From contig JBJOMY010000002.1 of assembly GCA_046052125.1 (NCBI GenBank), forward strand, positions 192,001 to 256,000: DNA of 64,000 nucleotides. The letters are read 5' to 3'. The stretch comes from Cyanobacteriota bacterium (lineage in GTDB: Bacteria; Cyanobacteriota; Cyanobacteriia; PCC-6307; Cyanobiaceae). Within the stretch, counting starts at the first letter, position 1. The number at the start of each line of letters is the position of its first letter. A program made the position numbers and the translations under genes. Shown here in pieces: positions 53,957-58,019 of the stretch. Under the pieces are notes generated by a model. That model ran no database searches. It worked only from the letters and a program-made list of their open reading frames with translations, and had not been told where the DNA came from.

Positions 53957-54379
53957 ATGCTCCGTTCAGCTCTCACAGGGGTGATGCCGGCCCTGATGCT
54001 GACGGCGGCAAGCCTGAGCTTCGGCCCGGCGGCCCACGCCGCCACGGAGCCCTCGGGGCCAGCGGCCAAGGGCGCACAGGTGTACTGCTTCATGCGCAAC
54101 TCCGGCAACAACCACGAGGTGAGCTGGCTGGCGGCCTATGCGCTGATCAAACGCCAGAGCGCCAGCCTGTTCAAAACCTCACCAGAACACGCGGCGGTGA
54201 TGATCACCGAAGCTGTGGTTCAGAACCCGGGCACCTTCCCCGACTGCGGCAAATATCTGGGTGATCTCTATGCAAATGCGGTTCAGGAGCAGCAGAAACA
54301 GAAGGAGCAAAGCGAAGCTGCCGCTGCCACAAAGAGCACTGAAGGGGGAGCGACTCGCACTGAGCGCTACGCCTACTAA
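53957..54379 (+). CDS. DUF6554-like exported protein
   Basis: Signal peptide ending AHA; GAQVYCFMR..HEVSW..FPDCG. Confidence 0.75.
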   Translation: MLRSALTGVMPALMLTAASLSFGPAAHAATEPSGPAAKGAQVYCFMRNSGNNHEVSWLAAYALIKRQSASLFKTSPEHAAVMITEAVVQNPGTFPDCGKYLGDLYANAVQEQQKQKEQSEAAAATKSTEGGATRTERYAY

Positions 54380-54788
54380 GGCCGCGGCCCTGGGTTCGGC
54401 AGCAGCCCTGGCCCTCACGTTGTTGGCGGGCTGCGTCAGCACCCCTGCCGATCCCACCACCAGCCTGCCCGGGCTGGGCGACTGCCTGAACCGCGTGGAG
54501 ATGAAGAAGCTGCGGCGCGCGTTGGCCCGCTGCAACGAGGTGGTGGACGCCCATCCGCTCCAGCCGCAACCCCGCAATGAACGGGCGTTGCTCCACAGCC
54601 TGGCGGGCGACAACAAGGCCGCCTGCAGCGACAGCCGCGCCGCCTCGGAGCTGCTCAAGCGATTGCCGAAGACCCCTGCTCCCGACCCACTGCTGGTGGA
54701 GGAGATTCAGCTGCGGGCCAAGAGCTGCCAAGCGCTCACCACTGCTCCAGCAACTGCTTCACCAAAGCCGGCAGAGCGCGGCGCCTGA
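54360..54788 (+). CDS. Hypothetical Cys-rich TPR-like lipoprotein (start uncertain)
   Basis: Lipobox LLAGC; PRNERALLHSLAGD..AACSD; start codon not obvious. Confidence 0.55.
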   Translation: MSATPTKAAALGSAAALALTLLAGCVSTPADPTTSLPGLGDCLNRVEMKKLRRALARCNEVVDAHPLQPQPRNERALLHSLAGDNKAACSDSRAASELLKRLPKTPAPDPLLVEEIQLRAKSCQALTTAPATASPKPAERGA

Positions 54789-56289
54789 GCAACAGCTCGA
54801 TGCGCTCAGCCTTGCTGGCGATCAAGTCATCCACCATCTGATCGGCCACCCCCAGCTGCAGCCAATGGCAGTGCAGGCTGCCCTGCATCCCGATGCGGTG
54901 GCAGCGATCCTCCGCCTGCTCGGCATCACCGGGGGTCCAGGGGCGCTCCAGCAACACCACGTGCCTGGCCCGGTGCAGCGTGAAGCCCAGGCCCCCCACA
55001 CCGAAGGTGCTCACCAACAGGGGTTCCGCGCCGGCCTGAAAGCCATCCACAATCCGCTGCCGTTCCGCCGCCGGCTGCCGGCCCGTGAGCAGGGCGCCGC
55101 CAAGACGCGCATGCAACAGCTGCGCTGCGGCCACAAACGCCGTGAACACCACCACCGCTTCCCCCTGTGCCAGCAAGCGCTGCACAAGCGCCGTGGCGGC
55201 GGGCAGTTTGTACTCGGCACTGATCTGGCGCAGGGCCGTAAACGCCGCCAGCACCTCGGCGTCACGCCGCACCAGGCCTGCCGCGGCCCGGCTGCGGTAA
55301 TCGTCCACCTTCAGCTGCAGCCGGTGCTGAAAACCCTGGCCCTCCGCATCGCTCAAGCTCACCGGCACCATCAGGCGCTGCTTGGGCGGGAGATCCAAAC
55401 AATCCTGTTTACGGCGGTGCAGCACCAGCGGCCGGGTGAGCCGTTGCAACTCTTCGAGATGGGTGGCCCCCATGGCCTGCCATTGGCGTTTGCCACCCCG
55501 TTCGAGCCAGTGCCCCTGGCAATAGCGCTCCTCAAACGCCCGCTGATCGGCCGCCAAGGGATGACCGATCGCTGCCAGCAAGGGGAACAGCTGCACGGGC
55601 CGGCCGTTCTTCATCGGCGTGCCCGTGAGCAGCCACACCGCCCGCAGCCGCGGATGACGGCTCAGGCGCAGGAAGGCCTGGGTGCGGCTGGCCTGCAGGT
55701 TCTGGGCGTAGTGGGCTTCATCGGCGATCAACACCGTGCCGGCCGGAGGCAGTTCCGCGGGAAGGCGGGCCCAACTCAGCAACTCCAACTGCAGCTGCAG
55801 GGCTGAAGCTTCCTGACGCCAGTGCTGATGCAGACCGGCGGGTGCCACCACCACAATCCGGCAATCGGCGGCGCGCACCATGGCCCGGGCCGCCGCCAAG
55901 GCGGTGAGGGTTTTGCCCAGACCCATGGCATCGGCCAGTACGGCCCCGCGGCGGGCCAGCAACCAGCGCGCCGCCGCCCGCTGATGGGCAAACAGGCTGC
56001 GGCCATCCGGAAGAGGCTGCTCGAGAGCGGCGAGCTCCACCAAGCGGCGATGGGGCGGCAGCGGCGGCAGGGGCTGCTCAAGCCAGGTGAACCACTGCTC
56101 CAGATCAGGGGCCACAGCAAAGCGATGGCCGAACTGCCGCCGCAACACCGCCGCCGCCTCGAGGGGGAATTGCCAGCAACCGCGCCGGCCGATCCAGTGC
56201 CCCCGCGGACGCACAGCCCGCAGCTGCGCCTGGGTGACCGCATCGAAGGGGAGCTGCAGCTCAATGCAACCGGAGGCCCCAAGACGCAT
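54736..56289 (-). CDS. SNF2-family helicase/translocase with an N-terminal HARP-like domain
   Basis: LFAHQ, LADAMGLGKT, DEAH, LTGTP, DLPPK and PWTPGDAEQAEDRCHRIG motifs; start is ATG 56289 or TTG 56325. Confidence 0.92.
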   Translation of the reverse strand: MRLGASGCIELQLPFDAVTQAQLRAVRPRGHWIGRRGCWQFPLEAAAVLRRQFGHRFAVAPDLEQWFTWLEQPLPPLPPHRRLVELAALEQPLPDGRSLFAHQRAAARWLLARRGAVLADAMGLGKTLTALAAARAMVRAADCRIVVVAPAGLHQHWRQEASALQLQLELLSWARLPAELPPAGTVLIADEAHYAQNLQASRTQAFLRLSRHPRLRAVWLLTGTPMKNGRPVQLFPLLAAIGHPLAADQRAFEERYCQGHWLERGGKRQWQAMGATHLEELQRLTRPLVLHRRKQDCLDLPPKQRLMVPVSLSDAEGQGFQHRLQLKVDDYRSRAAAGLVRRDAEVLAAFTALRQISAEYKLPAATALVQRLLAQGEAVVVFTAFVAAAQLLHARLGGALLTGRQPAAERQRIVDGFQAGAEPLLVSTFGVGGLGFTLHRARHVVLLERPWTPGDAEQAEDRCHRIGMQGSLHCHWLQLGVADQMVDDLIASKAERIELLLRRRALPALVKQLLEQW

Positions 56290-56346
56290 CAAACAGCGCT
56301 GCAGCGTTTGAGGGCGTGCGGGCAAGAGGCCAGGCGAGCGAAATTG

Positions 56347-56374
56347 ATTCTAACGACGCCTCAAGGCGAGGCAA
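56347..56374 (-). promoter_or_regulatory. Putative sigma70-type promoter of the SNF2 gene
   Basis: TTGCCT-16 nt-TAGAAT on the minus strand. Confidence 0.5.
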
Positions 56375-56413
56375 GCAAGGCGATCAAGTGCGAAAACTGC
56401 ATCGCTCGACACA

Positions 56414-56441
56414 TTGACATCCCAGCCACCGCAGGCAAACT
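56414..56441 (+). promoter_or_regulatory. Putative sigma70-type promoter of the HNH gene
   Basis: TTGACA-16 nt-CAAACT. Confidence 0.55.
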
Positions 56442-56462
56442 CACTGCAACCGAACCATGCGG

Positions 56463-56837
56463 ATGCACGCCAGGGATGCGGTGTTCCTTGAGGATCTGTG
56501 CCCCAAACTTCGTGTTCGTCGCTGGAGACAATCTCTCCATTCGTTTACTCACAAAACCTGCATTTACTGCGGGAAGCCATCTGAATCCATCGACCATGTA
56601 CTGCCCCAGAGCCGTGGCGGGCTGAGCACCACCGAAAATTGCGTACCGGCCTGCCTGGCCTGCAACGGCCGCAAGAGCGACGCCGACGCCTTCGAGTGGT
56701 ATCGGCGCCAGCGCTTTTATGACCCCCGCCGGGCGATGGCGATCCGGGCTTGGACCGATGGCGACCTGCGCCTGGCGATGCGCCTGTTGCAGTGGGCCAG
56801 CCCCCAGCGAGCGCCCCTGGGCCTGCAGGCGGCGTGA
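56463..56837 (+). CDS. HNH endonuclease (zinc-finger type)
   Basis: CIYC..IDHVLPQSRGG...NCVPACLACNGRK. Confidence 0.92.
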   Translation: MHARDAVFLEDLCPKLRVRRWRQSLHSFTHKTCIYCGKPSESIDHVLPQSRGGLSTTENCVPACLACNGRKSDADAFEWYRRQRFYDPRRAMAIRAWTDGDLRLAMRLLQWASPQRAPLGLQAA

Positions 56838-56847
56838 TCCGCTGGCC

Positions 56848-57081
56848 TCACCAGATCCGGCAAGCCGCAGCACCGTTGTGTCGCTCGCAGATCTCCGCCT
56901 GGGCAGCGGGCTGCTCCGGAGCGAGCAGGGCAGCCCCGAGCACCAGCGCAACCACAGCTGGCCACACCAGCTGGCGGCGCTGAATCCTGGTGCGCACACC
57001 AGGCGCCGTTGCCAGCAGGGAGACAGGCCGCTGCAGGGCGCGACCAACAGTCAGGGGAGTAGAGAAACAGGACGCGGTCAT
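56848..57081 (-). CDS. Small hypothetical membrane/exported protein
   Basis: One TM helix (LVWPAVVALVLGAALLA), then PEQP..CERHNGAAACRIW. Confidence 0.65.
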   Translation of the reverse strand: MTASCFSTPLTVGRALQRPVSLLATAPGVRTRIQRRQLVWPAVVALVLGAALLAPEQPAAQAEICERHNGAAACRIW

Positions 57082-57098: not shown

Positions 57099-57112
57099 GA
57101 TACAGGTGTACT
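57099..57112 (-). promoter_or_regulatory. LexA-box-like site
   Basis: AGTACACCTGTATC versus the cyanobacterial consensus AGTAC-N4-GTACT: one perfect half-site, one degenerate. Confidence 0.5.
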
Positions 57113-57113
57113 C

Positions 57114-58019
57114 ATGACCTCCCGTGCTGTCAACCCGGGGGCCAGGGTGCTGGTGGTGGGCGGCGGTTACAGCGGCGAGCGCTTCGCCCGAGCCGCAGCC
57201 GAACGCGGCGCAACGGTGTGGCTCACCCATCGCCGCGAAAGGGATCTCGGTGGCGAGCCCGCCGCCCCAAGCAGGCTCTCCTGGCTGCGCTTTGACGCAG
57301 ACGCCCAGGCGATCCCTGCGCTGCCAGAGCAGCTCAGCCATGTGCTGATCACCCTGCCCCCCCAGGCCGATGGGAGCGACGCAGCGCTCAACCACTTGCT
57401 GGAGCCCCTACGCCAGCAGCCGCTGCGCTGGCTCGGCTACCTCTCCACCACGGGGGTCTATGGCGACAGCCAGGGGGCCTGGGTGGATGAGCACTCCCCC
57501 ACCGAGCCGACCCTGCCCCGCAGTCAGGCGCGGCTGCGCTGCGAGCAACGCTGGCTCAGCAGCGGCCTGCCGGTGCAGAGCTTCCGGCTGCCCGCTATCT
57601 ACGGCCCGGGCCGCTGCCCGTTTGAGCAGCTGCGCAGCGGTGCGGCGCGGCTGGTGCACAAGCCCGGCCAGGTGTTCTGCCGGATCCATGTGGACGACAT
57701 CGTGGGGGCACTGCTGCACGCCAGCAACCAGCCCGAGGGCAAGCAGCCAGCGGTGATCAACGTGAGCGACGACACTCCCTGCCCCTCCAGCGAAACCCTG
57801 GGCTACGCCGCCCACCTCCTGGACTGCAAGCTGCCGGCCGTGCAGCGCTTCGAGGCCATCGCCCCTCAGATGAGCCCGATGGCCCTGAGTTTCTGGGCCG
57901 ACAACCGGCGCGTGAGCAACCAGCGCCTCTGCGGCGAGCTGGGTTACCAGCTCCGCTATCCCAGCTACCGGGAGGGCTTCGCCGCCAGCCTGGCGGAAGA
58001 GCAGCGAGCAAAGGCTTAG
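57114..58019 (+). CDS. NAD-dependent epimerase/dehydratase (atypical SDR)
   Basis: GGGYSG, YLSTTGVYGD, RLPAIYGPGR and RIHVDD motifs. Confidence 0.9.
   Translation: MTSRAVNPGARVLVVGGGYSGERFARAAAERGATVWLTHRRERDLGGEPAAPSRLSWLRFDADAQAIPALPEQLSHVLITLPPQADGSDAALNHLLEPLRQQPLRWLGYLSTTGVYGDSQGAWVDEHSPTEPTLPRSQARLRCEQRWLSSGLPVQSFRLPAIYGPGRCPFEQLRSGAARLVHKPGQVFCRIHVDDIVGALLHASNQPEGKQPAVINVSDDTPCPSSETLGYAAHLLDCKLPAVQRFEAIAPQMSPMALSFWADNRRVSNQRLCGELGYQLRYPSYREGFAASLAEEQRAKA

Follow-up and report, generated by a model that had tools for sequence, protein, structure and literature searches.

A small SNF2 protein with a HARP-like domain and its divergent HNH nuclease neighbour in picocyanobacteria

An SNF2-family ATPase gene and a gene for a small HNH nuclease stand head to head in the stretch of 64,000 nucleotides analysed here (the window; contig JBJOMY010000002.1 of GenBank assembly GCA_046052125.1, positions 192,001 to 256,000), which comes from a GC-rich picocyanobacterium; near-identical proteins carry Cyanobium or Vulcanococcus names. 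The locus raises the question of whether the two genes encode in trans what the eukaryotic enzyme ZRANB3 carries on one polypeptide, as was proposed in an original prediction made from the sequence alone, or whether a translocase and a nuclease with separate jobs lie side by side. We consider it fairly probable that the SNF2 gene codes for a minimal bacterial translocase resembling SMARCAL1, with a role in annealing or fork remodelling, and that its neighbour is an independent core nuclease with which it may cooperate. To our knowledge, SMARCAL1 and ZRANB3 have been studied almost exclusively in animals. Literature searches brought up no publication on a prokaryotic HARP-SNF2 enzyme or on this gene pair; the original prediction, too, was made without awareness of a characterisation of the pair.

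The HARP-like domain and the motor of the SNF2 protein

In the original prediction the N-terminal segment IELQLPFDAVTQAQLRAVRPRGHWIGRRGCWQFPL was likened to the HARP domain; this string and the motif VI string QAEDRCHRIG are both found in the translation of 54736-56325 on the minus strand. Pfam HARP gave no match on the SNF2 protein at E<=1, and a search of the whole genome with PF07443 gave none at E<=10. Among the 66 closest sequences five carry Pfam HARP at E<=1e-3, and when 42 relatives were scanned singly it was seen in P0132, P0160, P0161 and P0162, lying over the cut-off in P0160 alone (26.4 against 25 bits). Comparison of the first 110 residues with 43 relatives brought out a common pattern, I.l.g..i.v.FPYD...v..vK.i..g..W....K.W.FPl, W39 of the HARP-like domain being invariant, and a hidden Markov model (HMM) of the N-terminus matched the segments labelled HARP by Pfam in these four relatives at i-E values of 1e-10 to 1e-15, including P0132 and P0162, which lay outside the training set and were matched at 3.8e-15 and 1.8e-10. 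A profile from an alignment restricted to the N-terminal domain (A4; 14 cyanobacterial and 26 other rows, 40 in all) was searched against 177,635 PDB sequences, and the HARP domain of SMARCAL1 (4o66) was the sole significant match (E=1.1e-6, 31.4 bits, profile positions 4-55 of 62), the next-best row having an E value of 4.8. These sequence comparisons support the assignment of the N-terminus as a HARP homolog, and the resemblance noticed earlier is borne out, even though Pfam HARP misses the protein.

The AlphaFold (AF2) model of residues 1-110 has a pLDDT of 92.3 and the order strand-strand-helix-strand-strand-helix. Against 48,161 chains, VIA-align placed T4 UvsW at the top (Z 5.4 and 5.3; for 2oca Z 5.4, with a root-mean-square deviation of 2.2 over 57 residues); the N-terminal domains of XPB were found at Z 4.5 (2fz4), 4.3 and 3.9, and 4o66 at Z 3.9 (deviation 2.2, 47 of 67 residues). 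The HARP, UvsW and XPB domains are said to be structurally related, a relationship reportedly described by Mason et al. in 2014. T4 UvsW and archaeal or eukaryotic XPB also resemble the cyanobacterial protein in having a small recognition domain ahead of an SF2 motor; they differ in that sequence similarity is undetectable and in having motors from outside the SNF2 family, and the low Z of these best structural matches may mean a common small fold only. Weighing against the HARP assignment, a Foldseek search of the N-terminal model against the PDB gave no match at E<=1e-3 (the best being 1.4), the fold evidence being weak by itself, and every VIA-align Z lies below 6 with unrelated folds of similar Z interspersed, so that such values may reflect a common arrangement. 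The predicted fold, in which the Z of 3.9 to the one protein singled out by sequence is weak, is consistent with HARP but falls short of proof.

The HARP-like domain is directly N-terminal of the SNF2 ATPase core, from which it is separated by a linker of about 35 residues, the ATPase starting near residue 97. The protein begins at this domain with no N-terminal extension, so the RPA-binding N-terminal region is lacking. Both lobes of the motor were recognised by Pfam (SNF2-rel_dom 1.5e-23, Helicase_C 3e-14), and Walker A, DEAH and motif VI are all intact, residues G123, G125, K126, D190, E191, Q458, R462 and R465 being invariant in 66 relatives. Motif VI had been described as close to that of SMARCAL1 and ZRANB3; it is present as described, but this closeness is not diagnostic, since QAEDRCHR[IV]GQ is shared by SMARCAD1, where the same motif aligns. 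No SMARCAL1 or ZRANB3 motor was found among the best 60 of 78 PDB matches to the protein, and in the Pfam scan nothing follows Helicase_C. In vertebrates SMARCAL1 has two tandem HARP units, and HARP together with the motor is sufficient for SMARCAL1 activity. The cyanobacterial protein is SMARCAL1-like in the position of HARP directly ahead of the motor, in its profile match to 4o66, in its intact motifs I, II and VI and in having relatives with one or two HARP units (two tandem HARP-like units were seen by the N-terminal HMM in 15 of 150 representatives). It differs in being prokaryotic and only 517 residues long, in its single HARP, in the missing RPA-binding motif and in lying beyond the reach of the Pfam HARP model.

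A library search returned 48,998 relatives at E<=1e-3, a number that falls to 1,904 at E<=1e-30; the nearest ones outside the cyanobacteria have motor identities of 40-48%, and many of them have longer N-termini. In 76 of the 120 longer relatives listed the HARP-like unit is N-terminal; many of the listed relatives are of actinobacterial type and carry the automatic JGI name SMARCAL1-like, which is a label and no test of kinship. HARP-like SNF2 genes were also found in 27 of 80 viral contigs fetched, and within 1.8 kb of 25 such viral loci (149 open reading frames, ORFs) Pfam recognised primase or Toprim genes at six loci, SSB at one, DNA polymerase B at one and sigma factors at eight, together with structural genes. 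PHROGs assigned the SNF2 protein to phrog_62, "DNA helicase" (1.8e-68), and the ESM Atlas returned generic helicase and HNH clusters only, cyanobacterial and viral. When GenBank phages were searched with the SNF2 protein four weak matches were obtained, none of them in a cyanophage. Membership of the protein in a large group of HARP plus SNF2 proteins from prokaryotes and viruses is thus supported; the architecture of this group is already known, relatives being automatically labelled SMARCAL1-like. The bacterial and uncultured-virus members share the architecture at 25-48% motor identity; the cyanobacterial gene differs from the viral ones, which lie beside primase, SSB and polymerase genes, in being chromosomal, single-copy and syntenic throughout the family and in not belonging to a phage replication module. 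A further 67 distant SNF2 loci (20-33% identity) have neither a HARP-like domain nor an HNH homolog and are for that reason uninformative on pairing.

Proteins of HARP-SNF2 architecture are commonly encoded by bacteria and uncultured phages, with the HARP part mostly escaping standard Pfam annotation. A protein of 517 residues with little beyond HARP and motor, near-core in picocyanobacteria of the Synechococcus/Cyanobium type, would be a convenient model for how HARP steers an SNF2 motor. As a separate observation, inteins or homing-endonuclease domains (Intein_splicing, LAGLIDADG_3, Hom_end_hint) were seen inside the ATPase of the relatives P0132, P0134, P0136, P0165, P0170, P0174 and P0395-P0402, which are 1,000-1,150 residues long.

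The HNH nuclease and the divergent spacer

The neighbour was predicted to be a stand-alone zinc-finger HNH nuclease, and this was confirmed by Pfam (HNH 2.3e-10, 40.9 bits against a cut-off of 21.4; HNH_5 7.7e-10), by its best PDB match, the Geobacter metallireducens HNH 4h9d (6.3e-9), and by an invariant CxxC...CxxC pattern. Its matches in NCBIfam include the HNH parts of Cas9d and IscB. Neither the zinc site (C35, C38, C66, C69) nor the catalytic residues D46-H47, N61 and N70 vary among 36 orthologs drawn from across the family, in which 58 of the 126 positions are invariant overall, and the Arg-rich flanks outside the HNH core are also highly conserved. Family-wide identity is 67-97% for HNH against 45-89% for SNF2, and at one locus (L016) it is 79% for HNH, 80% for EF-P, 48% for PdxA and 40% for the epimerase. 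Few small proteins encoded at the locus are as conserved as the nuclease, which is at about the level of EF-P and is found in some of Earth's most abundant phototrophs. It shares with Geobacter 4H9D, T4 endonuclease VII and the HNH of Cas9 and IscB the zinc finger, the D-H...N...N pattern and a similar size, and it differs from the 4H9D class in its Arg-rich flanks and in a linker with a conserved C-terminal tip. By these likenesses it is probably a nicking or junction-cutting enzyme.

Behind the body of the protein lies a linker whose length varies from 8 to about 200 residues, followed by the tip [WLFY]-x-[LFWI]-[QK]-x-A-COOH, examples being LGLQAA, WDFQAA and WRWQMAS; 74 of 120 orthologs terminate in AA, and the tip is retained in genomes that have no SNF2 gene. 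The tag encoded by the transfer-messenger RNA (tmRNA) of the same genome (contig C5) is ANNIVRFSRQAAPVAA, ending in ...PVAA, and the resemblance between tip and tag suggests a possible function of the tip as a degron or docking peptide. The structure model of the nuclease is poor (pLDDT 63.2).

Homologs of the nuclease were found in cyanophages, which make up 132 of 216 matching phage records and show 36-44% identity over 63-80% of the length; their hosts are Synechococcus and Prochlorococcus (records H5-H29; L185-L187), and the genes lie in structural, recombination or unassigned contexts. The small genomes G018, G073, G102 and G128 of genus g18 have, in addition to the HNH gene at the syntenic site, a second copy elsewhere with 57-61% identity, and a more distant paralog (E about 1e-11) is present in most genomes of the family. 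An apparent in-frame TGA in the g18 gene was rejected, as this stop directly precedes the start codon and leaves the ORF complete. An excerpt of PMC2921402 mentions an ultraviolet-induced HNH of Prochlorococcus, PMM1528; a link of this locus tag to the HNH gene could not be made.

Back-to-back promoter-like elements had been predicted in the spacer between the two genes, and this was upheld for the HNH side. A TTGACA at 56414-56419, 16 nucleotides and CAAACT at 56436-56441 are conserved in 14 of 14 aligned spacers and belong to a conserved block (56393-56441; AAAACTGCA..TCGACACATTGACA, 16 nucleotides, CAAACT) with a near-consensus -35 and CAAACT as -10, which is likely, from its sequence, to be the HNH promoter with an upstream element. 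On the SNF2 side a consensus scan gave a weak promoter-like site (56374-56347, 9 of 12), and the SNF2-proximal half of the 14 spacers is not conserved. There is no LexA-type box (RGTACNNNDGTWCB) in the spacer, the nearest LexA-like sites being at 54073, 54222 and 57099 with one mismatch each; the last is a near-palindrome, AGTACACCTGTATC, at 57099-57112, which has one mismatch to the cyanobacterial LexA box on both strands and lies just upstream of an NAD-dependent epimerase-like gene (57114-58019). In four RNA libraries there are contigs that overlap portions of the two genes, in some cases without differences; such contigs cannot show transcription, strand or level, and DNA carry-over is possible.

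Distribution of the two genes and what the pair may do

In a sample of 151 genomes of the family, with an ortholog-level cut-off of E<=1e-40 applied to HNH in reading the table of matches, the SNF2 gene was present in 112 genomes (77 of the 98 of good quality) and the HNH gene in 133. Both were found in 112, HNH alone in 21, neither in 18 and SNF2 alone in none. Fourteen of the 21 HNH-only genomes are at least 99% complete, seven of the 18 with neither gene are at least 94% complete, and at all seven HNH-only loci examined the SNF2 gene and a small ORF overlapping its end are cleanly gone with everything else kept. Since HNH survives alone in many relatives, an obligatory pairing of the two genes is improbable, and the nuclease looks independently essential, a core gene of picocyanobacteria. 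Its higher identity than that of SNF2, the conserved promoter found on the HNH side only, the retention of its tip in genomes without SNF2 and its cyanophage homologs likewise speak for independence. Prochlorococcus-like genomes in which HNH is cleanly parted from SNF2 are a natural experiment on the job of each protein.

The sequence data show domain homologies, intact motifs, the distribution of the genes and their synteny, and from these we infer annealing, fork regression and nicking as well as any cooperation of the two proteins. By homology, the HARP domain would bind the junction of single- and double-stranded DNA, and the SNF2 motor would pump duplex DNA so that unwound strands are re-annealed or stalled forks are regressed or branch-migrated. 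The SNF2 protein may work alongside RecG and RuvC: RecG is encoded in the same genome (729 bits, above the cut-off), so the SNF2 protein would be an addition and not a replacement, and a RuvC-like gene is also present. Like RecG, it is expected to combine a junction-recognition domain with a double-stranded DNA motor in an analogous job, with the difference that the motor family and wedge domain of RecG are unrelated. The HNH would be a separate small zinc-finger nuclease of the Geobacter-HNH and T4 endonuclease VII class, held under very strong constraint and working on its own where the SNF2 protein has been lost. Branched DNA intermediates may be shared substrates of the two proteins, which would not form an obligate two-part enzyme, and the genes would stand head to head because they are part of one old syntenic core segment.

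Several observations weigh against such independence and speak for a closer tie. The two genes are adjacent and divergent at 13 of 13 fetched loci with both genes, and at 12 of 13 further cyanobacterial loci, the contig of the thirteenth ending 153 nucleotides upstream of the SNF2 match. In genome G025 both are absent between intact flanks, and both are absent at the syntenic site in g9 and g50, two more genes being gone as well in g9. In a midpoint-rooted tree of the epimerase (a single-gene tree of 25 rows, not a species tree) the genomes with neither gene fall in two places nested among carriers of the pair, the clade of g9 and g50 having a support of 99/96 and the enclosing clade 100/99; this nested placement suggests two joint losses, but one deletion easily removes neighbours. 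In the phylum sample outside the family SNF2 (E<=1e-30) was found in 8 of 286 genomes, and HNH gave three weak matches in the 286, in other genomes than SNF2; the confinement of both genes to one cyanobacterial family fits a common origin, and their joint absence is compatible with a history in common and perhaps with a common job.

The adjacency, on the other hand, says little about pairing, since the whole neighbourhood is equally syntenic, the order being cbiD, aminotransferase, small ORFs, SNF2, HNH, epimerase, pdxA, accB and efp. The adjacency of the genes whenever both are present and their confinement to the family favour some link; the 21 HNH-only genomes and the equal synteny of all flanking genes do not support the module of the original prediction. 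A locus with both genes was also found on a contig labelled as a metagenome-assembled genome of Bifidobacterium breve (L026; SNF2 70% identical to that of the window), which looks mis-binned because the locus is cyanobacterial.

A split ZRANB3-like module, in which the motor would remodel the stalled fork and position or activate HNH to nick it as a functional and possibly physical pair, lineages without SNF2 using another motor such as RecG, is in our judgement rather unlikely. The adjacency, the family confinement and the joint absence at the syntenic site in two lineages speak for it, as does the finding that none of the 151 genomes has SNF2 without HNH. The last is nearly trivial, because HNH is present in 133 of them, the joint absence has to be set against the ease with which adjacent genes are deleted together (the g9 gap takes two further genes), and HNH stands alone in 21 genomes. 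The closest relatives of the two genes outside the family also differ, cyanophages having HNH without SNF2. In the 32 HARP-SNF2 loci from outside the cyanobacteria (25 viral, seven metagenomic) an HNH-type neighbour is seen in two, namely NinG in L132 and an HNH at 22.7 bits in L212, which favours such a module, but the other 30 have none; at L219 the neighbour is a PD-(D/E)XK nuclease.

The comparison with ZRANB3 itself is also divided. In ZRANB3 the recognition domain is C-terminal of the motor, and the fused SNF2-HNH proteins P0455 and P0461, which are 2 of the 120 longer relatives listed and only distant (29-32% identity), are consistent with this. The existence of such fusions favours a split module, but the HNH of the window matches theirs weakly, at a score of 11-12, and has seven residues between C38 and D46-H47 against about 50 in the fused proteins. 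The cyanobacterial SNF2 protein has its HARP domain at the N-terminus in the order of SMARCAL1, and in the Pfam scan none of the other ZRANB3 features, a C-terminal HARP-like domain, PIP, APIM or NZF, is seen after Helicase_C. According to excerpts of PMC5481773, the nearest structural relatives of the ZRANB3 HNH are T4 endonuclease VII and Geobacter HNH 4H9D, the latter being also the best PDB match of the cyanobacterial HNH, which again favours the module. The same excerpts describe ZRANB3 as a single polypeptide with its recognition domain after the motor, with motifs for binding PCNA and ubiquitin, and with an HNH distinguished by a specific helical insert, which is not present in the cyanobacterial HNH. 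The likeness to ZRANB3 (AH2) lies in the broad group to which the SNF2 motor belongs and in a CxxC zinc-finger HNH at the same locus; the cyanobacterial HNH is a separate divergent gene, not fused C-terminally, and is kept where the motor was lost. The claim of a split bacterial ZRANB3-type module acting in trans was not supported, in view of the N-terminal HARP, the missing insert, the HNH-only genomes and the two loci out of 32. The observation was confirmed, and the ZRANB3-module interpretation was partly supported, as to the HARP-SNF2 side and some link of the genes.

A more specific form of the proposal, which we regard as unlikely, is that a two-gene fork-processing unit, a trans-acting analogue of ZRANB3, entered the picocyanobacteria in a single acquisition at their base. 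Its motor would regress or re-anneal forks and hand the junction to HNH for a controlled nick, the C-terminal tip would be a docking peptide or a degron that limits HNH, and streamlined Prochlorococcus-like lineages would have dropped the motor and kept the nuclease.

It is also conceivable, if quite doubtful, that the two proteins have unrelated jobs and that HNH is no DNA-repair nuclease, being for example a domesticated cyanophage HNH used in some other essential nucleic-acid transaction and curbed by a C-terminal degron. The HNH family is indeed common to cyanophages in varied contexts, the protein is extremely conserved including the Arg-rich flanks beyond its core, it has its own conserved promoter, and its ..Q-x-A tip recalls the ..VAA end of the tmRNA tag. 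Nevertheless, nothing in the data points to a particular alternative substrate, HNH enzymes that cut DNA have the same catalytic residues and zinc finger, and the degron reading is based on resemblance alone.

Helicase-nuclease pairs are common in defence systems, but an anti-phage role, as entertained in the original prediction, here taken as an SNF2 helicase and a nuclease like components of DISARM, Zorya or Dpd, is very improbable, since the partial PADLOC matches of the motor to DpdE, ZorD and DrmD (best 2e-27, 93.7 bits) and of HNH to PDC-M01B and PtuB extend over no more than the generic motor or the HNH core, the models being much longer, NCBIfam scores are 35-121 bits against cut-offs of 500-1500, no full-length match to DrmD, ZorD or DpdE (NCBIfam 35-61 bits for the helicase models) and no methylase or other partner gene nearby was found, the genes lie in a single-copy core syntenic segment among housekeeping genes (pdxA, accB, efp, cbiD) and in no variable island, and the HNH is 67-97% identical family-wide, unlike fast-evolving defence genes.

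Layout of the locus

The features of the locus are collected in the table. The SNF2 ORF extends to an in-frame TTG at 56325, which would give 529 residues (54736-56325, minus strand); the ATG at 56289 (517 residues) is preferred, because orthologs are mostly 517-529 residues long and align from residue 1 of the 517-residue form. Orthologs of HNH start at the third residue (MH.RDAVFL), which places M3 at 56463 and gives 124 residues. With the ATG at 56289 and the HNH start at 56463, the head-to-head arrangement and the 173-bp spacer are as originally described.

Table. Positions of the SNF2 and HNH genes and of their parts in the window
Feature	Position	Strand	Details and evidence
SNF2-family ATPase gene	54736..56289	-	517 aa from ATG 56289; ORF, Pfam, ortholog alignment
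HARP-like substrate-recognition domain, residues 1-62	56104..56289	-	Profile match to 4o66, N-terminal HMM, AF2 model
ATPase lobe 1, residues ~97-358	55216..56001	-	Pfam SNF2-rel_dom
Walker A MGLGKT	55909-55926	-	Within lobe 1; codons read from the sequence
DEAH	55711-55722	-	Within lobe 1; codons read from the sequence
ATPase lobe 2, Helicase_C, residues 369-467	54889..55185	-	Pfam Helicase_C 2.9e-14
Motif VI QAEDRCHRIG, terminating lobe 2	54889-54918	-	Q458, R462, R465 invariant
Divergent spacer, 173 bp	56290..56462		Alignment of 14 spacers, consensus scan
Stand-alone HNH nuclease gene, 126 aa	56457..56837	+	Pfam, PDB 4h9d, ortholog alignment
Zinc-finger HNH core C35-x2-C38, D46-H47, N61, C66-x2-C69, N70, K73	56559..56675	+	Invariant columns; aligned to Geobacter HNH
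C-terminal tip LGLQAA of HNH, after the variable linker	56817..56834	+	C-termini of 120 orthologs and of the cyanobacterial loci among L001-L033

Three small ORFs beside the pair were found by tblastn to be conserved family-wide, at 53957-54379 (140 residues), 54261-54788 (175 residues) and 56848-57081 (77 residues). The 77-residue ORF follows directly after HNH on the opposite strand, and the 175-residue ORF is convergent with the SNF2 gene, overlaps its 3' end and is the one lost along with it.

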